Counted from the stretch's first letter, positions 23,006 through 53,595 are shown. The stretch: 64,000 nt of DNA from an uncultured Erysipelotrichaceae bacterium (GCA_902779035.1 CACZAH010000002.1:16688-80687), one strand, 5' to 3'. The notes: generated from the letters alone by a model not told the origin. Numbers and translations: made by a program.

Positions 23006-23746
23006 TTAATAATAAACATCATTTAGGTAAAGTCCACATGCAGGCGCACATACTCCTGATGCAGTTCTATCTTCTTTTTTAATTATATCTATTACATCAG
23101 AACTTTTTACTTTACCTTCACCAACTTCAATAAGTAATCCTACTATATTTCTTACCATATATCTTAAGAAACCATTACCTAGTAATGATATAACTATTCT
23201 ATTAACATTCTTAGGATCACGCTCTAAAGTTGCTTGAATAATAGTTCTTACATAGTCATCTTTCTCGTCATTTGGTTTAGTAAATGATTTAAAGTTATGA
23301 GTTCCTTCTAGATATTTTAGTGCTCGCTCCATCTCTGGTATATCTAATCTTTTATTAAGTTGATATACATAGTTTCTCTCTATAGGATTATATCCATCTA
23401 AATTAATTTTATATATATATTCTTTTGCTTTCACATTAAATCTAGCATGGAAATCATCTGCAACAGTAGTAATACCACGAATATAAATATCATCAGGAAG
23501 CAAACTATTTAGACTGTATTTTAACTTAGATAAGTCCATTTCTTTATCTAGATCAAAATGTGCTTTTTGATTATAAGCATGAACTCCAGCATCAGTTCTA
23601 CCCGATGCGTGTATAGATACACTTATATCCCCATTAATTTTAGTTAAGGCTTTTTCTATTTCTCCTTGAATAGTTCTTTCTTTAATCTGTTTTTGATAAC
23701 CAGAAAATGCAGAACCATCATAAGAAAATGTCATAAAATATCTCAC
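23006..23746 (-). CDS. truA: tRNA pseudouridine(38-40) synthase
   Basis: MRYFMTFSYDGSAFSGYQKQ..., the catalytic-Asp motif HASGRTDAGVHA, and a length of ~245 aa. Confidence 0.9.
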   Translation of the reverse strand: MRYFMTFSYDGSAFSGYQKQIKERTIQGEIEKALTKINGDISVSIHASGRTDAGVHAYNQKAHFDLDKEMDLSKLKYSLNSLLPDDIYIRGITTVADDFHARFNVKAKEYIYKINLDGYNPIERNYVYQLNKRLDIPEMERALKYLEGTHNFKSFTKPNDEKDDYVRTIIQATLERDPKNVNRIVISLLGNGFLRYMVRNIVGLLIEVGEGKVKSSDVIDIIKKEDRTASGVCAPACGLYLNDVYY

Positions 23747-24576
23747 TTTTTACCACCAGACTTCTTCTCTACATAATAGTAGATATCTTTTATTAAATCA
23801 TTAACATTATCCCTATATTCTAATTTAATCTTTGTCTTATGTTCAAACAACTTTTGAAACTTAATTATATCAGGAATACTAATATTAGTATTTTTAAGTT
23901 TACTACTAGTAAGCACATCATACTTATTACCATGTATTAGTATCTTATCATTGTTTATTACATATATATAATCAGCTACTCTAAGTATAAACTCTGTATC
24001 ATTACTAAGTATTACAATTGTTTTATTATACTTAAGCTTCATCATTTTAATTAGTTTATATAGGTTATCTTTCTTACTTTCATCTAGAAAACAAGTAGGA
24101 TCATCTAATACTAATACTTTAGGATTAATAGATAGAGTAGTTGCAAGAGCGACCTTAAACCTTTCTGAATCACTCAGTGTTTTAATCTTTCTATTTATAA
24201 AACTACTATCTAAACCTACCATTTTAAGAGAATCAATAATTCTTTTTTTAGATTTTTTATAGTTATATACGCTAAGCTGATAAGCCATATGTTCTTCTAC
24301 AGTACGTTCAAAAAAAGTAATATCTGTATTTTGAATAACATAACCAATATCAAATCTAAGACGATTATAATCTACATCTTGTCTTTTTAAATCAAGTACA
24401 TTCTTATCTATTATGAACTTACCACTATCAGGCTTTCTTAAAGTAGATAATACCTCACCAATTATACTTTTACCACTAGCATTATCTCCAATAATAGCAG
24501 TTACTTTAGCATCAAAGATACACATATTAAGCTTCTTAAAATTACCTACACTAATATCACTTAATACTATTTCCAT
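23743..24576 (-). CDS. EcfA-like ABC-transporter ATP-binding protein, degenerate (signature LSDSE, Walker B VLVLDD without Glu)
   Basis: Walker A GDNASGKS. ~277 aa. Sits in the ecfA-ecfA'-(ecfT)-truA position, with a 4-nt overlap with truA. Confidence 0.6.
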   Translation of the reverse strand: MEIVLSDISVGNFKKLNMCIFDAKVTAIIGDNASGKSIIGEVLSTLRKPDSGKFIIDKNVLDLKRQDVDYNRLRFDIGYVIQNTDITFFERTVEEHMAYQLSVYNYKKSKKRIIDSLKMVGLDSSFINRKIKTLSDSERFKVALATTLSINPKVLVLDDPTCFLDESKKDNLYKLIKMMKLKYNKTIVILSNDTEFILRVADYIYVINNDKILIHGNKYDVLTSSKLKNTNISIPDIIKFQKLFEHKTKIKLEYRDNVNDLIKDIYYYVEKKSGGKK

Positions 24577-25319
24577 ATCTCATCCACCAACGATTCTATA
24601 TCTTTAATATTTTTATCTATAAGTCCGTAATATTTTAGTTTATTAGTTATATCTAATAAGAAAGGTAATTTTAAGTGATTTTCTTCAAATATTTTATTAT
24701 CACTAATTACTTCTTTTGTCTTCTTATTAAACACTAACTTTTTATCTACTAGTATTGTATAGTCAGAACCTATTATCTCACTTACATCTGATGCAAAATT
24801 AATAATAGTTACTTTCTTCTTTTTTAATTTATTAAAATAACTTAATACTTTCTCTTTTAGATTTCTATTCATTCTACATAATGCATTATCAAGAAGTAAG
24901 ATATCTAAATCAAGAACCATTATCGAACATAATACTACTAACTGCTTTTCCCCTAAACTAAGTTTATAAGGATCTTTATCAAGAATACTATCTAGATTAA
25001 AATAGGATACAATCGCTTTAATACGACTACTAATTACTCTTTTACTATAATTATTCATCTCCATAAAGAACTTAAGTTGTTTATCTACAGTACGTCCTAC
25101 AATCTGTTTATCAGGATTAGTAACTACATAGTTTATATTACCATTTACTTTAATACTTTTATTTCCTTTTATAATAGTATTGAATAAGGTAGTCTTACCA
25201 CTAGAAGATGGCCCTATTATAGTAGTATACACACCACTATTAATTACTAGGTTTAATTTATCATATATAACTGTGTTTTCTCTTTTCAATATCAAATTCT
25301 TAATTTCAACCTTATTCAT
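24567..25319 (-). CDS. EcfA-like ABC-transporter ATP-binding protein, degenerate (signature LSLGE, Walker B LLLDN without Glu)
   Basis: Walker A GPSSSGKTT. The start was chosen at MNKVEIKNL, which has an AGGTGG RBS. It overlaps the downstream ATPase gene by 10 nt. Confidence 0.6.
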   Translation of the reverse strand: MNKVEIKNLILKRENTVIYDKLNLVINSGVYTTIIGPSSSGKTTLFNTIIKGNKSIKVNGNINYVVTNPDKQIVGRTVDKQLKFFMEMNNYSKRVISSRIKAIVSYFNLDSILDKDPYKLSLGEKQLVVLCSIMVLDLDILLLDNALCRMNRNLKEKVLSYFNKLKKKKVTIINFASDVSEIIGSDYTILVDKKLVFNKKTKEVISDNKIFEENHLKLPFLLDITNKLKYYGLIDKNIKDIESLVDEIWK

Positions 25320-25611
25320 AGTTACCACCTTTCTCATTATTATAATATATAAATAAGTGATTGTAAACAAATTTTGACATAATTTAATAAGGTAATCATT
25401 GGTAAACACTACAAAAAATTAAAAATAAAAAGATATAAATTATCCTTATATCTTCTCAATTTCTTGCATAGTTAATCCTGTAATTTGTGCAATATCTTCT
25501 AATTTATAATTTTCTTTTTTCATATGACGCTTTTTCATCGTTTTCAAGAATACGACCATTATACCAATCAACAATTAAAACCATTTTTCTACTCATTATA
25601 TCTTCTTAGTT

Positions 25612-40905: not shown

Positions 40906-41316
40906 CTAACGTTTACTAAATTGTGGAGCACGTCTTGCACCTTTTAAACCAGGTTTCTTACGTTCTTTACTTCTTGGATCTCTTGTTACAAAACCAGCTC
41001 TCTTTAATGTTTTTCTGTAGCTATCTTCATTTGCTTCATTAGCTTTATCATATTCAATTAAGCAACGTGTAATTCCTAATCTAATTGCACCAGTTTGACC
41101 ACTAGCACCACCACCAGTTACTTTAATTTCAATATCAAATGTCTTTTCATTATTTGTTGCAACTAAAGGTTGCATTAAATCCATTACATTAGTTTCATGT
41201 GGCATGAATTCTTTTACATCTCTACCATTAACTGTAATCTTTCCACTACCTGCAGTCATTTTAACTTGAGCAACTGCAGATTTTCTTCTACCTGTAGCAG
41301 TAAATACTTTTGCCAT
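40906..41316 (-). CDS. rpsI: 30S ribosomal protein S9
   Basis: ...[19 protein letters not shown]...PQFSKR, the canonical S9 C-terminus. Confidence 0.95.
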
Positions 41317-41325
41317 ATTTCCTCC

Positions 41326-41760
41326 TTATTTAACTTCCATTTTAGCAGGTTTTTGAGCCATATGTGGATGGCTCTCCTCTGCATATACAAATAATTTCTT
41401 TGACATTTGACGACCAAGTCTATTATGAGGAAGCATTCCTTTAATAGCTCTTTCTACCATTTCTACTGGATATTTTTCTTTCATTTCACGAGCAGTTCTT
41501 TCACGAAGGCCACCAGTATATCCACTATGATTATAATAAATCTTTCCATCTAACTTATTTCCAGTCAAATTAACCTTTGAAGCATTAACTACGATAACAA
41601 AATCTCCACAATCGATATGCGGTGTGTAAGTTGGTTTATGTTTTCCACGAAGAACAGTTGCAACTTTAGCAGCTAAACGTCCTAAAGATACACCATCTGC
41701 ATCAATTACATACCAATTACGCACTACATCTTCTTTTCTTTGCATAAATGTATTTTTCAT
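41326..41760 (-). CDS. rplM: 50S ribosomal protein L13
   Basis: [33 protein letters not shown] is the L13 signature. Confidence 0.95.
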
Positions 41761-43571: not shown

Positions 43572-44846
43572 TTAAATTTCACCTTTATATTTATATAATT
43601 TTTTTACAATTTGACAATACTTTACATCTGATAAATCCACATTCTTCTTTTCTGCAATATATTTTGTTAAATACATACTTTGTATAAGCATTTGATGATC
43701 ATCTAATATTTGATCTTCATATTTTGAATCTATAGTAATAATTCTACTATAATATTTTTTTAATTCTTCTAACATCATTCTATCAAATTCAGTATTTCTA
43801 TTATAATAAATCGCTATAGCATTATAATTAATACCAAGTGTGCTTCTACCATGACAATAAGAATATTTATCATGAACTATAGGTATTCCTATTCCTGATT
43901 CAACCATAGTTGATTCTAAATATTTTGATGCTGTACTTGTATCATAACCACTAAATATTTCATAGACATCACTTCCTAAATCAAAATCAAATGGTACTTC
44001 TTCTATACAATCTAACATTAGACTATTTTGTCTATTTAAATAATAACTCATTAATATACTCACAGGAATTAATGTTGCACCAAGTGATATAAAACTTTTT
44101 TCTTTATCAATAGTAGTGTTATATTTTAAGTAAGTTACATCATTATCATCAAATGAATTGTTAGAAAGTAAGTATTTTCTCAAACCTTTTAAAAATGATA
44201 ATTCTACTCCATAATTGTTTCCACTATAACTACATGCTACTACATTTTTAAATGCACCATTGTTTCGGTATAAAAAATCTCTTGGCTCACTATTTACTGA
44301 AACTATACCATTTTTAGTATTAATGACTTTGGCACCAAATTCACTAACTACACTTGATCCCCCAACACCACTAAATAATGTTGGTTCATTTAGTTTAGAC
44401 AATTCATTCCTAATAAAATCTAAATCAGTATTATTTAGTGAATCAACCACCCTTTCTTTTAGAAGTTCAAAATTAACTTGCATATTTTTTTGATACATTT
44501 TTTTAAACTGATTATAATCTATTACTGGTGTTTCAGTATTTTCGCTGCCAATTTTACAACAGTAACAGTCGCCATTATCAAAAATCTCATATAATTTTTC
44601 ATTATATTTTAACACATAACAAAATGTATTTTTAAATGTTATCCCATTTTTAAATCCATATTTATTAATTTCATCAAACAATGTTGATAAACAGTCAATG
44701 AAGACAATATCTTTTTCTTTCAAAACCCCTCTACTATTATGAGCAAAGTAGCAATCATCGAATTCACCATATTGATTCACAAAACTATCCAACCAATCTA
44801 TATACTCATCATTTAAAATTAATTTTACAAATTCTTTCTTTTCCAT
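43572..44846 (-). CDS. Hypothetical cytoplasmic Cys-rich 424-aa protein of unknown function, downstream of the WYL regulator
   Basis: An intact ORF with no confident family. Motifs FDDCYFAH, DCLSTLF, CYCCKIG, FSGVGGSSVVSEFGAKVI and HDKYSYCHGRSTLG. Confidence 0.4.
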   Translation of the reverse strand: MEKKEFVKLILNDEYIDWLDSFVNQYGEFDDCYFAHNSRGVLKEKDIVFIDCLSTLFDEINKYGFKNGITFKNTFCYVLKYNEKLYEIFDNGDCYCCKIGSENTETPVIDYNQFKKMYQKNMQVNFELLKERVVDSLNNTDLDFIRNELSKLNEPTLFSGVGGSSVVSEFGAKVINTKNGIVSVNSEPRDFLYRNNGAFKNVVACSYSGNNYGVELSFLKGLRKYLLSNNSFDDNDVTYLKYNTTIDKEKSFISLGATLIPVSILMSYYLNRQNSLMLDCIEEVPFDFDLGSDVYEIFSGYDTSTASKYLESTMVESGIGIPIVHDKYSYCHGRSTLGINYNAIAIYYNRNTEFDRMMLEELKKYYSRIITIDSKYEDQILDDHQMLIQSMYLTKYIAEKKNVDLSDVKYCQIVKKLYKYKGEI

Positions 44847-44897
44847 AAAAAATCTCCTTTCAAGTTAACTATAACTCAAAAGGAGGTAATATTTCGT

Positions 44898-45500
44898 CTA
44901 CTCATATTTTTCATTTAATAATTCGTATTTTATTATTCTTTTTAACTCAAAATGCCTAATATCTTGTTTCTTTTCACAAAAGGCTGCACAGTACCAACCA
45001 TCTTGAAATAAAAACATTTCTGCTGGATCTATTACTCTTTCGTTTTCACCTTTACCATAAGAGTAATATAATATTTTAACTTTCCTCTTTTCTTTTATTG
45101 CTCTTGTTAATAAATTATACTTCTTTCCATTTTCATCTTTTAAATTTAATTCTTTTTCTTCTTGCTTACTTCCTATGTATACGCCTTTAATTTTATCTTG
45201 AAGTAATATAAGTTCATCTTTTATGTCCTTATCTTTTTCACTTGCTATGTACTTATCTAATAATTTAGCATCTTTCATTTTAAATTTTCTAACAGGCATG
45301 CGAACTGATTGATTTAATACATATCCTCCATATGGTCCCATTATTGTATCAATATATATTCCTGCTTTTTCCAAATCTTCTTTATATACTCTAATCATTC
45401 TATAAGTTACTTCAAGTTTGTTTGATAATTCACTTATGCTATATTTTCTTCCAGACTGTAATAGTTGCAACATTGTTAATACATTGGATATTTTAGACAT
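44898..45500 (-). CDS. HTH + WYL-domain transcriptional regulator (YafY/CapW-like, short form)
   Basis: The N-terminal HTH_11-like segment MLQLLQSGRKYSISELSNKLEVTYRMIRVYKEDLEKAG. The C-terminal WYL-like region KVKILYYSYGKGENERVIDPAEMFLFQDGWYCAAFC...IRHFELKRI. Start at an ATG with an AGGTGG RBS. Confidence 0.55.
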   Translation of the reverse strand: MSKISNVLTMLQLLQSGRKYSISELSNKLEVTYRMIRVYKEDLEKAGIYIDTIMGPYGGYVLNQSVRMPVRKFKMKDAKLLDKYIASEKDKDIKDELILLQDKIKGVYIGSKQEEKELNLKDENGKKYNLLTRAIKEKRKVKILYYSYGKGENERVIDPAEMFLFQDGWYCAAFCEKKQDIRHFELKRIIKYELLNEKYE

Positions 45501-45582
45501 AAAACCACCTATATAAATTATATCATATCTTTTATCTTTCAAAAATATCCATGAAAAGGTATCTAAAGTGCGTTATAACATA

Positions 45583-45650: not shown

Positions 45651-48105
45651 ATTTACCACAACACTGCTTATATTTCTTTCCCGATCCACATGGACAAGGC
45701 TCATTTCTACCTACTTTTTTAACTCTTTTAGGTGCTTTTTTCTTAGTTTCTTTACCATCATTAGCAACACCTTTCTCTACTTCTTTTCTCTCTGTATTCT
45801 GTCTTATTTCAGCCTTTAGAAGATATGTAGTAGTCTGGGCATCAATCTTCATAAGTAGTTTTTCAAATAGTTCATATCCTTCATTTTTATATTCACGAAG
45901 TGGATCATTTTGTGCATAACCCCTTAAATGAATTCCTTCTCTTAAATGTGACATTGTATTAATATGTTCCATCCAGTGTGTATCTATTACTCTTAAAGTA
46001 ATTGCTTTTTCAAATTCATCTTTTATCTCATCAGGTACTTTAGCTATCTTTTCTTCATATTCTAATTTCATTTTATTAAATATGTAATCAGCCATAGTAT
46101 CTTCATCCATATTAGATATCTCATCAATAGTAATAGAATCCTTTAATAAGTCATTAATTCCTTCTAGCATCTCTGATAAATCATTTCTATTAGGACTATC
46201 TGATGATAAATGAGATTCTATTGAATCATATACAAAATTCTTCATGGATTCTAATACATCTTCATGGATAGATTCTTTTTCTAGAATATCATTTCTCTTT
46301 TTATAAATAATAGTTCTTTGTTCATTTAATACATTATCATATTCAAGTAATGTTTTTCTTATGTCAAAGTTATTACCCTCAACTCTTTTTTGGGCAGATT
46401 CAAGAGAACCTGATAACATCTTATTTCTAATAGACATATCATCATTAAAACCAACTCTTTGAAGTAGTAATTTGGCTCTATCAGTACCAAATCTAACCAT
46501 TAAATCATCTTCAAATGATACACAGAATTGACTAAAACCTGGATCTCCTTGACGACCTGAACGTCCACGTAACTGATTATCAATACGACGTGATTCATGA
46601 CGTTCTGTACCAATTACACATAATCCGCCTAACTCTTTTACTTCATCAGTAAGTTTAATATCTGTTCCACGTCCAGCCATATTTGTTGCGATAGTTACCG
46701 CACCTTTTTCACCCGCTTTAGCAATTATTTCAGCTTCACGAGCATTATTTTTGGCATTTAATACCTCATGAGGTATATGTTCTTTTTTTAATCTCTCACT
46801 TAATAATTCACTAGTTTCAACCGCAACAGTACCAACTAAAACTGGTTGCCCTATAGCATATCTTTCTTTTATTTCATTAATTATTGCTTTATATTTACCT
46901 TCTTTAGTAGCAAATAATAAATCACCATAATCTTTTCTAGCTATAGGTTTATTTGTAGGAATAGTAATAACATACATATTATATATTTCTCTAAATTCCT
47001 CTTCTTCTGTTTTAGCAGTACCAGTCATACCTGATAACTTTTTATACATTCTAAATAAATTCTGGAATGTTATGGTTGCAAGGGTTTTAGTTTCTTCATT
47101 AATTGTAACTCCTTCTTTAGCCTCTATTGCTTGATGAAGGCCATCAGAATAATTACGCCCCTTCATAAGACGTCCTGTAAATGGATCTACTATAACTATT
47201 GAATCTTCACTAACAACATAATCTACATCTCTTTTCATACCATAGTTAGCCTTTAAAGCCTGATTAATAAAGTGAACTAAAGTTGTATGATTAATGTCAT
47301 ATAAGTTATCTAATTTAAAAGATTTTTCTGCTTTTTCAATACCTTCCTTATCCAATGCAACTGATTTAGTTTTCTCATCATAGATAAATCCAGCATTTTC
47401 TTTTAATTTTTTTACAAATCTATCTGTTTCTATATATAGATTAGCAGATTTCATTGTTCCACCAGAAATAATAAGTGGAGTTCTAGCCTCATCTATCAAT
47501 ACTGAGTCCACTTCATCTATAATTGCAAAGTTAAGTGGTCTTTGAACTCTATCTTGTGCTTTAATAACCATATTATCTCTTAAGTAGTCAAATCCAATTT
47601 CATTATTTGTTGAGTATAGAATGTCACAATTATATGCTTCCTTCTTTTCAGCAGGTGACATATCACGATAATTAATACCTACAGTAAGTCCTAAATATCT
47701 ATATATTTCTCCCATCCATTCAGCATCACGTCCAGCTAAGTATTCATTTACTGTAATAATATGTACTCCATCACCTGATAATGCATTTAAATAAGCAGGT
47801 AGGGTAGATGTTAATGTTTTACCTTCTCCTGTTTTCATCTCAGCAATATTTCCATAATGAATTGCAAGTCCACCTACTAACTGTACAAAGAATGGTTTTT
47901 CACCCAATACTCTGTATGCAGCCTCTCTAACAGTTGCAAATGCTTCTACTTTAATGTCTTCTAATGTTTCTCCATTTGCTAGTCTTTCTCTAAATTCAAC
48001 TGTTTTATGCTTTAAATCATCTTCTGATAAAGCAGAATATTCTTCATCTAATGCATCTATTTCTTTAGCAATTTTCTTAAATTTCAAATATTTTCCAAAA
48101 ATCAT
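45649..48105 (-). CDS. secA: Preprotein translocase ATPase SecA
   Basis: 818 aa. The DEAD-like motor, the helical scaffold and the C-terminal zinc-binding [15 protein letters not shown]. Confidence 0.95.
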
Positions 48106-48136
48106 AGTTTAACCGTAAAAAAAGACTCAAAAGAGT

Positions 48137-48664
48137 CTATTTTGTTACGATTAAACCGTAATTACCATCTTTTCTTTTATATACAACATTTGTTTCGCTA
48201 GTACTAGCATCCTTATATACAAAGAAATCATGATCTATTAATTCCATTTGAAGTATTGCTTCTTCTTCACTCATTGGTTTCATTTCTATTTCTTTTCTCT
48301 TTACAACCTCAATTGATGATTCTTTTTCTTCTGTCTCAAATTCTTTAAAATCTCTAATTGTTTCTTTAGATGATTTTTTATGTATTTTAGTCTTATTCTT
48401 TCTAATTTGTCTTTCAATTTTATCAGTAACAAAATCAATAGATGCGTATAAATCTTTATTAGATTCTTCTCCCCTTAATATAAGGCCATGCGTATTAATT
48501 GTAACCTCTACAACTTGGTCTTTACCACTTAATCTCATTAAAACATTTGCAGAAATATTATTAGGATTTTCAAAGTATTTATCTAATCTCCCTATTTTCT
48601 CTTCTACATATGCTTTAATCGCATCTGTAACTTCTAACTTTTTCCCACGAATCGTAAATTTCAT
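48137..48664 (-). CDS. hpf: Ribosome hibernation promoting factor (long HPF)
   Basis: MKFTIRGKKLEVTDAIKAYVEEKIGRLDKYF plus the C-terminal dimerisation domain. The start has a GAGAGGA RBS. Confidence 0.85.
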   Translation of the reverse strand: MKFTIRGKKLEVTDAIKAYVEEKIGRLDKYFENPNNISANVLMRLSGKDQVVEVTINTHGLILRGEESNKDLYASIDFVTDKIERQIRKNKTKIHKKSSKETIRDFKEFETEEKESSIEVVKRKEIEMKPMSEEEAILQMELIDHDFFVYKDASTSETNVVYKRKDGNYGLIVTK

Positions 48665-48759
48665 AATATCATCCTCTCTAAGGTAATTATAGCATTTACA
48701 ATTACTAATTTCAATATAGTTATAACAAAAAAATGACAATCGTCATTTTTAACATCTAA

Positions 48760-48978
48760 CTACACAAGTGCATCTTTTAATTCAATAACGTTCTTAGCTT
48801 GTAACCCTTTGTCAGTTCTTACTAAGTCAAACTTAACATATTGGCCTTCAACAAGTGTTTTGTAGCCTTCAGATAAAATTGCGGAATAATGAACAAATAT
48901 ATCTTCTTGATCATTATATTCAATAAATCCAAAGCCTTTTTCGTTATTGAACCATTTAACTTTTCCAGTAATCATCAT
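48760..48978 (-). CDS. Cold-shock protein (CspA family)
   Basis: The RNP1/RNP2 motifs [14 protein letters not shown] and VHYSAI. ~70 aa. Confidence 0.9.
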
Positions 48979-49052
48979 TCATACATCTCCCTTCTAGTAA
49001 TCTCTTACAATATCAGTATACCATAAATTGAAGCTTCGATATTGTATAATCG

Positions 49053-49080
49053 TTCGACAAATTTCGACAAAAGTGTCGAA
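49053..49080 (-). promoter_or_regulatory. Triple 7-mer repeat TTCGACA / TTCGACA / TGTCGAA (two direct, one inverted) in the csp leader/promoter region; candidate operator or RNA element
   Basis: Three copies, seen directly, at a ~10-11 bp spacing. Confidence 0.35.
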
Positions 49081-49225
49081 CACTTTCATTATATTATAAT
49101 TAGTAATCCGATTCATTATTTTTGTCGTAGAATAGCGCTTTTTGTGCGCAAAAATTAATATGATTCAAGTTTTTCATTAAAAATTATCTTTTATACAACT
49201 ATAATTGCTATTAAAACCAAACGTA

Positions 49226-49254
49226 TTGTCGATAAATAATATTAATTCTATAAT
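49226..49254 (+). promoter_or_regulatory. Candidate agrBD promoter (TTGTCG-N17-TATAAT) 20 nt upstream of the agrB start
   Basis: The hexamers were read directly. An AGGAGA RBS precedes the ATG at 49275. Confidence 0.45.
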
Positions 49255-49274
49255 GCAATTGTCAGGAGATAAAT

Positions 49275-49904
49275 ATGAAAAAAATCGTATTAAATCATTG
49301 GATGAATATCATCAAAAACAATAAAAGATATGATAATGTAAAACTTGCGGAAATTGAATATGGATTAACTGCTATATATTTAACTTTTTCTAAATTAATA
49401 GTAATTGCTCTATTATCTATATTGTTAGGTATATTTAAAGAAATGATAATCTTTTTATTAATTTATAACGTCTTAAGAATGCCATCATTTGGAATACACG
49501 CAACAAAAAGTTGGATATGTCTTCTAACGTCATCAATTCTGTTTATTGGATTACCAATTGTTTGTTTAAATATTCATTTAAGTATAGCAATAAAGATAAT
49601 TATTGGTGTAATTGAATGTTTCCTAATGTTTAAGAACAGCCCAGCAGACACAAAAAAAAGACCTATAGTTAATCCTAAACGAAGATTAACATATAAGTTT
49701 ATTTCTACAATACTAGCAATTACTTTTGTAGTACTAAGTATCACAATAAATAATATTTTTATATCAAATTGTTTAGTATTCGGATTAATTCTTCAAAACG
49801 TTTTAATATCTCCATTAACATATAAGATATTTAAACAACCTTATAATAATTATAAAGAATTTCTAAGATTAAATCCAGATTTTCTAAATAAGAAAGCGTG
49901 TTAA
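49275..49904 (+). CDS. agrB: AgrB-family membrane peptidase that processes the autoinducing peptide
   Basis: ~200 aa with 6 TM helices. The AgrB-conserved region LRMPSFGIHATK (cf. R..sGG.HA.) and PADTKKRPI. Followed by an AgrD-like ORF. Confidence 0.8.
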   Translation: MKKIVLNHWMNIIKNNKRYDNVKLAEIEYGLTAIYLTFSKLIVIALLSILLGIFKEMIIFLLIYNVLRMPSFGIHATKSWICLLTSSILFIGLPIVCLNIHLSIAIKIIIGVIECFLMFKNSPADTKKRPIVNPKRRLTYKFISTILAITFVVLSITINNIFISNCLVFGLILQNVLISPLTYKIFKQPYNNYKEFLRLNPDFLNKKAC

Positions 49905-49948
49905 TGTTATAAAGCATTTAACATAGAAATTCAGAAAGGAGGGTAGTT

Positions 49949-50068
49949 ATGGGATTTTTAGCAAACATTTTAGCTGCACTTGGTATTGGAAGTGCTGCGA
50001 CTGGATCACAAGCATGTCATTTATGGATACTTGACGAGCCAGAATGCCCAGAAAATTTAATCAAATAA
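49949..50068 (+). CDS. agrD: AgrD-like autoinducing peptide precursor (39 aa)
   Basis: An AAAGGAGGG RBS. The amphipathic leader MGFLANILAALGIGSAATGS; the Cys-containing core SQACHLWIL; and the AgrD-typical acidic tail DEPECPENLIK (cf. DEVEVPKEL in S. aureus and HQPEEP in C. perfringens). Confidence 0.75.
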   Translation: MGFLANILAALGIGSAATGSQACHLWILDEPECPENLIK

Positions 50069-50082
50069 TAATTTATTTATGG

Positions 50083-50126
50083 AAAAAGCTGTTAAACCTC
50101 TAAATCATAATTTACAGCTTTTTTTT
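50083..50126. terminator. Bidirectional intrinsic terminator between the convergent agrD and agrC-like genes (AAAAGCTGT-N21-ACAGCTTTT flanked by A/T runs)
   Basis: A perfect 9-bp inverted repeat with an A5 run before it and a T6+ run after it. Confidence 0.6.
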
Positions 50127-50140
50127 ACAGTTCTTTATAA

Positions 50141-51442
50141 TTACTTTGTATCCATTTTATAGAACAATTTTTGAGTAAATAAATCTTTTGTAATCATTCT
50201 TTCGTTATATAATTTTTGATTTTTTTCTAATGTTTTTTTTACTAATTGCAGACCATAACCTCTACCATCACCCTTAGAAGTCTTTAATTCCATATTATTA
50301 TTTTTAATCTCGCCTTGATAATTGTTTGAAATATCAATAACAAATTGATTGTTTTTTAAATAGAAATCTAAGTTAATAATCTTATTGTTAAGATTTTCAC
50401 AAGCATCTATTGCATTATCAATAAATACTCCTATTATTGTACATATATCTACTGCATCATCATCATTTACGTAAAAATTATGATTTGCAGATATTTTTTT
50501 ATCAACGTGAACATAATACTTTATTTGTTTTTCTTCAATGTTATTTAATTTACTATAAACTAATCCTCTAATACCTCCTTGAGGTATTCTTAAAGATGTA
50601 ATAATTGTTGAATTAATCATCGAATCTCTATTGTTTATTAATGAATTAATATAATTTAAAATCTTTTTATTTTTAGTCATTGATTTAATTGTTAATAATT
50701 GATTTTTGTTTTCATGATTTATTATTCTATATTCATCTATCAATTTCTCGCGTGTTTTTAAATCTTTTATACTAGTTTGATATTTAAAATTGGTTTTATA
50801 ATATTTATTTTGATAATTAAATGAATATATGACTATAATAGTATAAATAATTGCAATTATCGAATTTAATATCAGTGATAGTAAAACATTATTCTTAAAA
50901 TATATTGTAGTTGTAAAAATATTAGTACCTATCGCAACAAACAAAACTAATAGTGTAACTTGTTTTACATTAATACGCAATGTAATTCTTAAAAAGAAAT
51001 TATATAATTTTTTGATAAAACTAATTTTTGAAATTAACAGAGAAAATAAAGAAATAATAATATCTATAGAAATTGTTAAAAATGTAGAATTTGAGATTAT
51101 ATTAGCATCTACTTTTAAAACTAACATCATAAAAATATAAATTATAGATTCTGATATAATAATTATTAATTCAGTAAGAAATGTCAATAAAATTGATTTC
51201 CTTAGAGTTATCCTAAAAATATTTTTACAGAATACAATTAATAAAACAACTACTAAGAATCCTTTTATAAAATTATTACCATATTCATGAATTAATACAA
51301 TACAAATTGATAACAAAATCATTTCAATAATAAAATAAATATTTCTTTTCTCTATATTAATACTTGCAATTTTTTCCCAAATTGATACTTGCACAAATAA
51401 TGACACAAAAGTACTAATCACATCTAATATAAAATAACTCAC
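50141..51442 (-). CDS. AgrC-like sensor histidine kinase (HPK10 family: polytopic sensor plus a GHKL ATPase)
   Basis: A ~200-aa N-terminal domain with 6-7 TM helices. The H-box region RIINHENKNQLLTI, the N-box FIDNAIDACEN and the G-box SKGDGRGYGLQLV. Confidence 0.75.
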   Translation of the reverse strand: MSYFILDVISTFVSLFVQVSIWEKIASINIEKRNIYFIIEMILLSICIVLIHEYGNNFIKGFLVVVLLIVFCKNIFRITLRKSILLTFLTELIIIISESIIYIFMMLVLKVDANIISNSTFLTISIDIIISLFSLLISKISFIKKLYNFFLRITLRINVKQVTLLVLFVAIGTNIFTTTIYFKNNVLLSLILNSIIAIIYTIIVIYSFNYQNKYYKTNFKYQTSIKDLKTREKLIDEYRIINHENKNQLLTIKSMTKNKKILNYINSLINNRDSMINSTIITSLRIPQGGIRGLVYSKLNNIEEKQIKYYVHVDKKISANHNFYVNDDDAVDICTIIGVFIDNAIDACENLNNKIINLDFYLKNNQFVIDISNNYQGEIKNNNMELKTSKGDGRGYGLQLVKKTLEKNQKLYNERMITKDLFTQKLFYKMDTK

Positions 51443-52143
51443 ACAACCATCTCCTTTTTATATTTATCTGATAACAAATCAGTATATTCACCATTATCAA
51501 AATAAATTATTCTTTTACTTCTATCGATTCTTGATATTCTAGTTTTGTTAACAATACATGCTCTATGAGAGTAAATAAATCTATCATCTAACATATCATA
51601 TATTTGAGATAATGACTTTCTAACTTTATATTCTGCATAATCTGTTTTTATAGTTGTTTTTCTATCAAAAGTTTCTTTAATAAAACATAAAATATCGTTC
51701 AAATCAATAATATAAGTATTGGTTCCATCTTCAATTCTAATCGTTCTCTTTAATTTCACTAAATCAATTGCTTTGTGTAAAACTTCATTTAGTCTTTTAT
51801 CCATATTATCAAATTTATTAACAAATGCTAAGAACATTAGGTCATTTTGTAAAATTAATCTTCCTAACTCATCATGACCAGTAAGAAATATGATGACACT
51901 ATCTAAATCCTTATTCCTAATCTCCCTTGCAACATCAATGCCAGATCTCGATGGAGTTTCAATATCAAGTATATAGATTCTAAATGGCATCTTGCTCTTT
52001 ACTAATTTCATAAAATCATCATTAAAATCTCTATAAACATGCGTTTGATAATTACATTTATTATTTACCATAAATTTTTCAACTAGATTTACAACTTTAT
52101 CTAAGTCTCTTTTGTTATCATCACAAATAACAACATTCAACAT
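51439..52143 (-). CDS. LytTR-family response regulator (AgrA-like)
   Basis: The receiver domain (LNVVICDDN..., phospho-acceptor in YILDIETP) and the C-terminal LytTR DNA-binding domain (YSHRACIVNKTRISRIDRSKRIIYFDNGEY). A 4-nt overlap with the kinase gene. Confidence 0.8.
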   Translation of the reverse strand: MLNVVICDDNKRDLDKVVNLVEKFMVNNKCNYQTHVYRDFNDDFMKLVKSKMPFRIYILDIETPSRSGIDVAREIRNKDLDSVIIFLTGHDELGRLILQNDLMFLAFVNKFDNMDKRLNEVLHKAIDLVKLKRTIRIEDGTNTYIIDLNDILCFIKETFDRKTTIKTDYAEYKVRKSLSQIYDMLDDRFIYSHRACIVNKTRISRIDRSKRIIYFDNGEYTDLLSDKYKKEMVV

Positions 52144-52232
52144 AAATCAAGCTCCTTTCTAATTAACTTCTCGTTAATTGCACATATATTACCACAAAAT
52201 TGTATAAAATGCAAATAAATGCTGGCAATAGA

Positions 52233-52259
52233 CTATTTGTATACAAAAAAAGATGCTTA
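52233..52259 (-). terminator. rplQ (alpha operon) intrinsic terminator (AGATGC-N7-GCATCT + T7)
   Basis: On the minus strand the hairpin follows the rplQ stop directly and is followed by TTTTTTTGTAT. Confidence 0.65.
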
Positions 52260-52613
52260 TTTTGCATCTTCCTCTACTAATTCTAAAATAACCATTAATG
52301 CGTCATCACCGCGACGTTCTTCCAATTTAAGTATTCTAGTATATCCACCATTACGATTTTCATAAGCTGGTGCCAATTCATCAAATACTTTCTTAATAAC
52401 TACATTATCGTTATGCATAAAAGCTAATGCTTTTCTTCTTGCAACTAAAGAACCATCTTTACCATAAGAAATCATTTTGTCAACAAACTTACGAACTTCC
52501 TTTGCTCTAGTTTCAGTTGTTTCAATCTTACCATTCATAAGAACATCTCTAGTTAAATTTGCTAGCATACTTCTTCTATGCTTATTAGTACGTCCTAATT
52601 TTCTATAAGCCAT
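52257..52613 (-). CDS. rplQ: 50S ribosomal protein L17
   Basis: [20 protein letters not shown] is the L17 N-terminus. Confidence 0.95.
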
Positions 52614-52644
52614 ACAAATCCTCCTAACTATTAATATTTAATTA

Positions 52645-53595
52645 TTAATCATCTTCTCGAAATTTAAGTCCCATTTCTTTAACTTTTTCCATTACTTCTC
52701 GTAAAGACTTCTTACCTAAATTTCTAACCTTCATCATTTCTAATTCAGACTTTGAAGTTAAATCACCAAGTGTATTAACACCAGCTCTTTTTAAGCAATT
52801 ATATGCACGAACTGAGAAATCCAAATCATCAATAGATGTCTCAAGCTTTTTTAGCTTTGTATCTTCTTTCTGAGCATTCATTAACCCTGATACATCAGCA
52901 ATTTCATTCAACTCAGCAATTATATTTAAATGTTCAATCATAATTCTTGCAGATAACGCCATTGCCTCTTCAGGTTTAATTGAACCTTTTGTACTAACTT
53001 CCATAACTAATTTATCATAGTTAGCATCTTGGCCAATACGAGCATTTTCTACTTCATAACTAACACGTTCAACTGGTGAATATATCGCATCTATTGCAAT
53101 ATATCCAACTTCTTCATCTTGAATAAATTTTTTGTTATCATTTGCAGGTACATAACCTCTACCATTAGCAACTATAATCTCCATATTAAGTTTTCCACCT
53201 TTTGCAAGAGTTGCAATTTCTTGGTCCGGATTAATTATTTCAATATCTGAATCTTTTTCAATATCTCCGGCTGTTACAACTCCTTCTTTATCAGCATGAA
53301 GATTTAATTTCTTAGTGTCTTCCGAATTGTTCTTTACAACAATATTTTTTAAATTAAGGACTATTGTTGTAACATCTTCAACTATTCCATCAATAGTTTG
53401 AAATTCATGCATTACACCATCTATTTTAACAGCAACAATTGCACTTCCTGGCATACTTGATAACATAATCCTTCTTAATGCATTACCAATGGTAGTACCG
53501 AATCCTCTTTCTAAAGGCTCTAATTCAAATTTACCAAAATTTTTACTATCAATATAATCAACAACTTTATATGCTGGTTTTTCAAATTTTATCAT
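52645..53595 (-). CDS. rpoA: DNA-directed RNA polymerase alpha subunit
   Basis: 316 aa, with the N-terminal dimerisation domain and the C-terminal domain. Position between rpsK and rplQ. Confidence 0.95.
   Translation of the reverse strand: MIKFEKPAYKVVDYIDSKNFGKFELEPLERGFGTTIGNALRRIMLSSMPGSAIVAVKIDGVMHEFQTIDGIVEDVTTIVLNLKNIVVKNNSEDTKKLNLHADKEGVVTAGDIEKDSDIEIINPDQEIATLAKGGKLNMEIIVANGRGYVPANDNKKFIQDEEVGYIAIDAIYSPVERVSYEVENARIGQDANYDKLVMEVSTKGSIKPEEAMALSARIMIEHLNIIAELNEIADVSGLMNAQKEDTKLKKLETSIDDLDFSVRAYNCLKRAGVNTLGDLTSKSELEMMKVRNLGKKSLREVMEKVKEMGLKFREDD

Follow-up and report, generated by a model that had tools for sequence, protein, structure and literature searches.

A probable clostridial-type agr quorum-sensing system at the end of the ribosomal alpha operon in uncultured gut bacteria

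Introduction

The agr peptides of Staphylococcus aureus and Listeria are known to have five-residue rings (PMC12312760); a six-residue ring has been documented for Clostridium acetobutylicum, and rings of the same size are predicted for its relatives (PMC12312760; PMC10301443). Separate agrBD and agrCA operons in clostridia have already been reviewed (PMC12312760), and agr2 of C. difficile (agrACDB) is a complete four-gene locus with the S. aureus order reversed, probably read as a single transcript and with no RNAIII identified (PMC3754575). Here we describe an agr locus that lies beside rplQ in a stretch of 64,000 nucleotides (nt) from an uncultured Erysipelotrichaceae bacterium (GCA_902779035.1 CACZAH010000002.1:16688-80687; the whole stretch is referred to as the window). 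Following up an original prediction for this DNA, we conclude that the locus is very probably a complete agr quorum-sensing system of the clostridial kind, based on an autoinducing peptide and probably functional. It is old and has been inherited vertically within its clade. The layout and the mechanism are already known, and the locus adds a lineage to a well-known system.

Results

The agr module and its distribution

An open reading frame (ORF) list and the sequence confirm the four ORFs of an agr set between 49275 and 52143, and the agrB, 39-residue agrD, AgrC-like kinase and LytTR regulator genes of the original prediction stand where it had placed them, in convergent order (Table 1). The kinase and regulator ORFs share four nt (GTGA). 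The upstream neighbour of the locus is rplQ, the last gene of the alpha operon. The cassette had been described as lying directly after the rplQ terminator; the adjacency is real, but the adjoining unit is agrA-agrC, co-directional with rplQ and beginning 113 nt past the rplQ stop codon, while agrBD is the unit far from rplQ and converges on agrA-agrC. The identical locus is found on three independent metagenome contigs (exact kinase sequence, same neighbourhood), one of them from the STEW19 assemblies, which we take to be rumen samples.

For comparison, the 80 loci closest by RplQ were taken from a scan of one genome per species. Their RplQ proteins are 80-92% identical to that of the window, and they belong to metagenome-assembled genomes of uncultured gut 'Bacilli/Tenericutes/Mycoplasmatota' from human, rabbit, goat, deer, mouse, chicken and cattle samples. 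A synteny test, in which the window proteins were run against these loci with tblastn, places agrA-agrC immediately downstream of rplQ in 24 of the 80 species representatives. In 22 of these agrD, agrB and csp could also be read, giving the order rpoA-rplQ-agrA-agrC converging on agrD-agrB-csp, with hpf and secA beyond where the contig reaches; the other two contigs end inside agrC. A neighbour-joining tree of RpoA and RplQ unites the window and the agr-bearing genomes in one clade without a single agr-less member. Since all members of this clade carry the module at one and the same site, it is fixed and vertically inherited in the lineage, an outcome that the original prediction had itself named as refuting its interpretation.

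A different order is seen in 22 other representatives, in which rplQ is followed by 0.9-7 kb of variable genes, then by ecfA-ecfA'-truA and, where the contig reaches, by rplM-rpsI; the remaining representatives have other genes after rplQ or sit on contigs that are too short. The expectation that ecfA-ecfA'-truA-rplM-rpsI should occupy this site therefore holds for the sister lineages, although not as a strict adjacency of rplQ and ecfA. As had been noted, rplM and truA lie at a distance in the window, with rplM/rpsI at 40906-41760 and ecfA/ecfA'/truA at 23006-25409. Since the sister lineages keep the order from rplQ to rpsI, an acquisition or a rearrangement must have happened in the ancestor; and since csp-hpf-secA follow agr in the window and rplM-rpsI there precede ecfA-ecfA'-truA, the neighbourhood has been rearranged and did not arise by simple insertion. 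Taken together, the gene orders and the tree show that the common ancestor of the clade, which numbers at least 25 species, already had the convergent module fixed at this site and the rplQ-ecfA-truA-rplM neighbourhood rearranged, and that inheritance has been vertical since.

This comparison bears directly on the idea of an accessory insertion, put forward in the original prediction, which in its plainest form would be a recent, horizontally acquired agr island in a canonical rplQ-ecfA-truA-rplM neighbourhood. Such an event would explain the order kept by the sister lineages and a G+C content that falls to 17-26% across agr; in addition, the annotated proteins nearest to the window AgrB come from clostridia and are encoded on plasmids. 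At the depth of this clade the synteny test contradicts it, as agr is found at the same position in 24 relatives, complete in 22, and at one site in all members of the 25-species clade. The divergence of agrA and agrB (45-68%) suits a long residence, the genes after agr are housekeeping genes (csp-hpf-secA) with rplM-rpsI placed before ecfA-truA, and the region after rplQ is variable in agr-less relatives as well. Furthermore, the ORF list holds no integrase, transposase or other mobility gene near agr, no repeats were found flanking the module, and our scan gave no relative of it among viral contigs. We regard a recent insertion as very improbable; what was taken for an insertion has long been fixed in the lineage, and as a genomic curiosity it is minor.

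Two related proposals were examined and rejected. Low G+C content was set aside as a sign of foreign origin, as only the membrane-sensor part of agrC is markedly lower, and agrB, agrD and agrA match nearby non-ribosomal genes. A phage or mobile origin was dismissed on the same negative findings for viral-contig relatives, mobility genes and flanking repeats, and on a distribution that is not patchy (25 of 25 clade members).

AgrB, AgrD and the predicted peptide

The AgrB protein of the window shows four hydropathy peaks. In an alignment that includes the S. aureus and Listeria proteins its His75 and Cys82 are invariant and fall on the GAHAPSSFWC motif of S. aureus AgrB, the catalytic pair of which we take to be His77/Cys84. 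A sequence search of the PDB returned no solved AgrB structure.

The agrD gene is preceded by a ribosome-binding site (AAAGGAGGG) immediately upstream of 49949. Its product can be divided into a leader (residues 1-17), a conserved TGSQA segment, Cys23, the variable residues HLWIL and an invariant tail, DEPECPENLIK. Cys23 and the DEPECPxxL tail are kept across 23 AgrD proteins of the clade, and these resemble reference AgrD proteins. The spacing from the cysteine to the prolines is +8/+11 in the window AgrD, against +7/+10 in Listeria and +10 in S. aureus. From this difference to the five-residue systems, and by comparison with the six-residue rings of the C. acetobutylicum type, the window AgrD is predicted to yield a six-residue thiolactone ring, C-H-L-W-I-L.

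Two further features of the clade AgrD proteins were observed. The tail contains a second cysteine (DEPE-C-P), which is invariant in 23 of 23 distinct sequences; in reference AgrD proteins this position is taken by V, M, I, S or F. In one subclade (L012, L027, L030, L031 and L033; for example L030 13061-13186) six variable residues, not five, separate the ring cysteine from DEPECP, and for these genomes the extra residue predicts seven-residue rings.

The AgrC kinase and AgrA regulator

The kinase and the regulator had been assigned to AgrC/AgrA-type families, and a check with profile hidden Markov models agrees: AgrB (PF04647), HATPase_c_5 and LytTR domains were found, and the best matches in the PDB are to AgrC and AgrA. 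Residues 1-205 of the kinase contain about six to seven hydrophobic, presumably transmembrane, segments by their hydropathy peaks, followed by His243 in the H-box, an N-box (DNAIDA) at 342 and a G-box (GDGRGYGL) at 391. The PDB sequence search with the kinase returned S. aureus AgrC only (4bxi, 6e52), and His243 aligns with the phospho-histidine motif of that protein (the histidine of FRHDY against INHEN). The regulator matches best to the LytTR domains of S. aureus AgrA (e.g. 3bs1). Its profile matches comprise a receiver domain with an aspartate at the phospho-acceptor position and a LytTR DNA-binding domain; Asp9, Asp60, Thr88 and Lys110 are invariant in an alignment with S. aureus, Listeria and clostridial AgrA, and Asp60 is predicted to be the phospho-acceptor.

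Diversification of the ring and the sensor

A hypervariable agrD and agrC-sensor region between conserved flanks is the known signature of the staphylococcal agr groups. The same pattern is evident here. The 23 distinct AgrD proteins of the clade consist of a conserved leader and TGSQA-C, five hypervariable hydrophobic residues (six in the one subclade) and an invariant DEPECP(E/K)SLIK tail. Pairwise identity within the clade has a median of 25% in the AgrC sensor, 44% in the kinase module and 87% in RpoA; relative to the window, the medians are 26% for the sensor and 41% for the kinase module. Two rabbit-gut genomes, L074 and L075 (11250-13350), provide a close view of this divergence: their flanking DNA is 98-100% identical, whereas the agrC sensor is 53-70% and agrD-agrB 79-88% identical, and their rings read CVIAII and CMFIII, respectively. 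The switch of pherotype is abrupt and suggests recombination or strong diversifying selection. Across the clade, similarity of the AgrC sensor follows similarity of the AgrD ring with a partial Spearman coefficient of 0.46 once RpoA identity is removed, a value that is descriptive only, as the pairs are not independent. The sequence comparisons thus show an AgrD ring and an AgrC sensor that appear to have diversified within the clade into distinct signalling specificities, or pherotypes.

The covariation of ring and sensor also speaks to whether the kinase is the cognate receptor. It could instead belong to a generic HPK10/LytTR pair, of the bacteriocin or competence type, that happens to lie beside an orphan agrBD like that of C. 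perfringens or C. botulinum. Orphan agrBD genes are common in clostridia (PMC12312760), neither protein reaches its equivalog cutoff (AgrC or AgrA), and the kinase has its best NCBIfam score with a model of the DcuS/MalK type. A chance pairing is difficult to reconcile with four genes that stay together in 22 species, with a sensor half that varies with the AgrD ring, or with L074 and L075, in which only the sensor and agrD-agrB have diverged; the best PDB matches, too, are AgrC and AgrA, and neither the ORF list nor the profile searches revealed bacteriocin or competence genes near the locus. We therefore consider a non-cognate pair very improbable, and read the kinase and regulator as the AgrC and AgrA of a complete system.

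Transcription signals

The two converging units are separated by a hairpin that the original prediction called a perfect bidirectional terminator. The hairpin is real and has ten perfect Watson-Crick pairs (50083-50092 with 50114-50123), but two G-U pairs extend the stem, the loop is 21 nt long and a consensus terminator scan missed it. Its folding energy is -11.7 kcal/mol on the + strand (z -2.7 against shuffled sequences) and -10.9 kcal/mol on the - strand, and we regard it as a likely bidirectional terminator, plausible but not of the textbook kind. In most relatives the agrC/agrD gap of 12-72 nt also holds hairpins, which are unrelated in sequence.

A second hairpin spans the rplQ stop codon. 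Of 25 clade loci, 19 have an equivalent hairpin with a T-run at this stop codon; the scan placed its other matches elsewhere in the spacer, and gave none for one locus. The consensus scan called neither this structure nor the agrD/agrC hairpin, and both come from folding. Because of the terminator-like hairpin at the end of rplQ, agrA-agrC needs a promoter of its own; a candidate sigma-70 site is present (Table 1), in a region where promoter-like sites are no commoner than in shuffled sequence. The candidate agrBD promoter is followed by an AGGAG ribosome-binding site for agrB at about 49264, and its TATAATGCAA is kept in the three nearest alignable relatives.

Sites recognized by LytTR regulators such as AgrA are expected to be direct repeats with a 21-bp geometry, as at P2/P3 of S. 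aureus. In most relatives, TTTGAAAT-like direct repeats spaced exactly 21 bp apart lie 130-160 nt ahead of the agrB start codon, and four in-phase 21-bp repeats were observed upstream of agrB in the L012, L027, L030, L031 and L033 subclade. In a motif-free test, 21 bp was the commonest best repeat spacing upstream of agrB, with a weighted count, used descriptively, of about 8 of 22 species against a mean of 0.96 and a maximum of 4.2 in 200 shuffles. The position of these repeats matches a TTTTTGT element in the window that recurs some 20-21 bp apart; as an AgrA box this candidate is weak and tentative, being too AT-rich for significance. Between the window and its three nearest relatives only the -10 box and a TTGCA-type block align upstream of agrB, and the repeat motif has drifted in these genomes. 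By analogy with the other relatives, agr in the window may be autoregulated.

The lack of recognized AgrA boxes in the window might suggest a decaying remnant that no longer signals, the more so as genomes in this group seem to be small, among them a relative whose circular contig measures 1.2 Mb. Decay would not be expected to leave four intact ORFs in the window and in 22 relatives with invariant catalytic and phospho-acceptor residues, however, and the invariance of the AgrD tail while the ring varies points to selection, not decay. We consider a remnant very improbable, and a functional system is favored.

No Rfam family, including any RNAIII-like RNA, reaches threshold in 48000-52800, where the only match is a sub-threshold cspA inside the csp gene. 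The 5' leader and promoter region of csp (48979-49110) is very strongly conserved over the clade and contains a repeated TTCGACA element, part of which lies in a hairpin (-13 kcal/mol); it may be a cold-shock-type leader or operator.

Table 1. Positions, strands and supporting matches of the agr genes, rplQ and the associated signals in the window.
Feature	Coordinates	Strand	Evidence
agrB, membrane peptidase/cyclase	49275-49904	+	PF04647, E=3e-32
agrD precursor, 39 residues	49949-50068	+	TIGR04223, 24.3 bits (cutoff 19)
agrC-like histidine kinase, 433 residues	50141-51442	-	HATPase_c_5 PF14501, E=1e-16
agrA-like response regulator, 234 residues, REC and LytTR	51439-52143	-	PF04397, 3e-15; PF00072
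rplQ, ribosomal protein L17	52257-52613	-	PF01196, E=1.4e-34
agrD/agrC intergenic hairpin with A-run and T-run flanks	50081-50125	both	folding
rplQ hairpin resembling an intrinsic terminator, then U-run	52245-52275	-	fold, -13 kcal/mol, z -2.6
Candidate sigma-70 promoter of agrA-agrC, TTGCCA/18 nt spacer/TACAAT	52199-52228	-	consensus scan, 10/12
Candidate promoter of agrBD, TTGTCG/17 nt spacer/TATAAT	49226-49254	+	consensus scan, 10/12
Weak, tentative AgrA-box region, TTTTTGT.. repeated about 20-21 bp apart	49121-49158	+	read from sequence

Neighbouring genes

The sequence after rplQ is variable in relatives without agr too (for example L011, L020 and L049); a recurrent ORF of about 250 residues lies just before ecfA in these genomes, with differing genes of 380-670 residues ahead of it. 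Genes can apparently be gained and lost at the end of the alpha operon in this group. In several clade members (L030 10427-11020; also L012, L027, L031, L033, L044 and L076 among the members with extra genes) an ORF of 197 residues stands between rplQ and agrA, which, judged from its sequence by eye, presumably resembles a hexapeptide-repeat acetyltransferase. Several (e.g. L030 14356-15594) have, besides, an extra gene of about 412 residues between csp and hpf, so that the junctions around the module are not rigid. In the outgroup L067 (18632-19662), csp and a LytTR-type regulator follow closely after rpsI but are encoded on the other strand; the regulator is 29% identical to the window AgrA, and L067 keeps the canonical rplQ-ecf-truA-rplM-rpsI order.

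Elsewhere in the window, at 23006-25409, ecfA-ecfA' abut truA with no ecfT between them, whereas many relatives have a gap of about 750 nt between ecfA' and truA, room enough for ecfT. Between secA and a thioredoxin-like gene (43572-45542) lie a WYL/helix-turn-helix regulator (44898-45542) and a protein of 424 residues (43572-44846) that has no Pfam match. WYL regulators often govern defence or DNA-damage genes.

Discussion

Our data suggest a model for the activity of this locus. The agrB and agrD genes would be transcribed from their own promoter, at about 49226-49254, and AgrB, through His75 and Cys82, would cut the invariant C-terminal tail DEPECPENLIK off AgrD and then close a thiolactone between Cys23 and the new C-terminus to give the ring C-H-L-W-I-L. 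We propose that another peptidase trims the leader of AgrD on the side of the conserved GSQA, and that the secreted peptide binds the polytopic AgrC sensor, upon which AgrC would autophosphorylate on His243 and hand the phosphate to Asp60 of AgrA. AgrA may then activate agrBD and further targets via its LytTR domain. The agrA-agrC genes would form a separate operon, translationally coupled through GTGA and with its own promoter just past the rplQ terminator, and the intergenic hairpin would part the two converging operons.

Several points weigh against this interpretation. The structure of the peptide, the signalling and the targets are all deduced from the sequence of an uncultured organism. 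The Pfam AgrD model scores the window AgrD at 17.7, under its gathering score of 22.7. The NCBIfam model of S. aureus AgrC covers the full length of the kinase at 43 bits against an equivalog cutoff of 500, and the top NCBIfam score of the kinase is that of a DcuS/MalK-type model over the catalytic half; we therefore regard the kinase as a member of the family, not as an orthologue of the staphylococcal protein. The best NCBIfam model for the regulator is AgrA, but at 68.6 bits it is far under the equivalog cutoff. The G+C content of the agrC sensor region is 17-20% compared with 24-35% nearby, which may come from membrane-protein composition and not from its origin. A position weight matrix of the relatives' half-sites, which was seeded by eye, detects clean 21-bp pairs in most species but no convincing pair of AgrA boxes upstream of agrB or agrA in the window, and the statistics on repeat spacing and covariation are descriptive and not probabilities, as the species compared are related. 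Lastly, the placement of the host in RF39 leans on one named relative from the agr-less sister groups.

That relative is Candidatus Faecisoma, a member of GTDB order RF39, family CAG-822 (PMC8035907), and on this basis the host is most likely an AT-rich member of the gut or rumen Bacilli, in or near RF39. We found no paper that links RF39 with agr. A bolder and, in our judgement, unlikely proposal is that a small-genome, RF39-like lineage of gut Bacilli uses agr as a core, vertically inherited means of recognizing its own species or strain, with six- or seven-residue rings, a constant exocyclic GSQA stub and an invariant extra cysteine in the AgrD tail; its receptor operon could receive read-through from the rplQ terminator, which would tie the level of the receptor to growth rate. 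If true, a whole uncultured lineage would signal with unusual large-ring thiolactones, mostly of six residues and of seven in one subclade.

A complete and vertically inherited agr system would extend agr-type signalling to a widespread uncultured gut group, members of which were seen in the rumen and in samples from humans, rabbits, goats, deer and mice. With over 20 variants in which AgrD and the AgrC sensor are matched, the clade forms a natural series. The interest of the locus now lies in the retention of the system across the clade in small genomes, the clear diversification of pherotypes, and rings predicted to have six and seven residues.

A comparison with described systems places the locus among the clostridial forms of agr. 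It contains the same four protein families as S. aureus agrBDCA, with the His/Cys motif of AgrB, the H-box and ATP-binding boxes of AgrC, the aspartate and LytTR domain of AgrA, and a hypervariable region over agrD and the agrC sensor. The window differs in having two converging operons in place of a single co-directional transcript, in a predicted ring of six residues compared with five, and in the RNAIII-like effector, divergent in S. aureus and not found by Rfam in the window interval searched. Identity to the S. aureus proteins is about 26% for AgrB and likewise for AgrA, and the window AgrA has an aspartate at the position aligned with the DNA-contact histidine, which we take to be His169 in S. 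aureus numbering. The C. acetobutylicum type is similar in its separate agrBD and agrCA transcription units, its lack of RNAIII and its six-residue macrocycle (predicted in the window); its two operons are co-directional, however, and a homologue of its lanM-like CA_C0082 was not seen downstream of the window locus in the ORF list or profile searches. Like C. difficile agr2, the locus is a complete four-gene set in an order other than that of S. aureus, although it is divided into two converging units.

The closest parallels emerged from a survey of 11 annotated agr loci used as references, among which plasmids are over-represented. The order B-D-C-A is co-directional in five of them (S. aureus, Listeria, C. 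taeniosporum, L. curvatus and E. gilvus), and in a further four the regulator is divergent and the other genes read D-B-C (C. estertheticum twice, C. tagluense and Clostridium sp. CM028). The convergent layout of the window is found in the other two, C. tagluense pCM022-183 and Alkaliphilus sp. B6464 pB6464, where agrB-agrD converge on an overlapping GHKL kinase and LytTR regulator pair; AgrA and AgrC of the window find their best matches among the reference loci here, scoring slightly higher against these two than against the co-directional ones. More generally, AgrB, AgrA and AgrC of the window are closest to clostridial proteins. The AgrD proteins of both have the same spacing of Cys or Ser to Pro (+8/+11), and that of C. 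tagluense has a similar T(S/G)xQAC motif. Literature searches on convergent agr layouts gave nothing specific. The two parallels are carried on plasmids of spore-forming Clostridia and share only 26-36% identity with the window locus, which, unlike them, is chromosomal and fixed by the ribosomal alpha operon of small-genome Bacilli. The convergent arrangement, which had been called unusual, is so when measured against the staphylococcal paradigm, but it is identical on these two plasmids and orientation varies widely over the 11 loci; it departs from the staphylococcal textbook and lies inside the known variation of clostridial agr systems.

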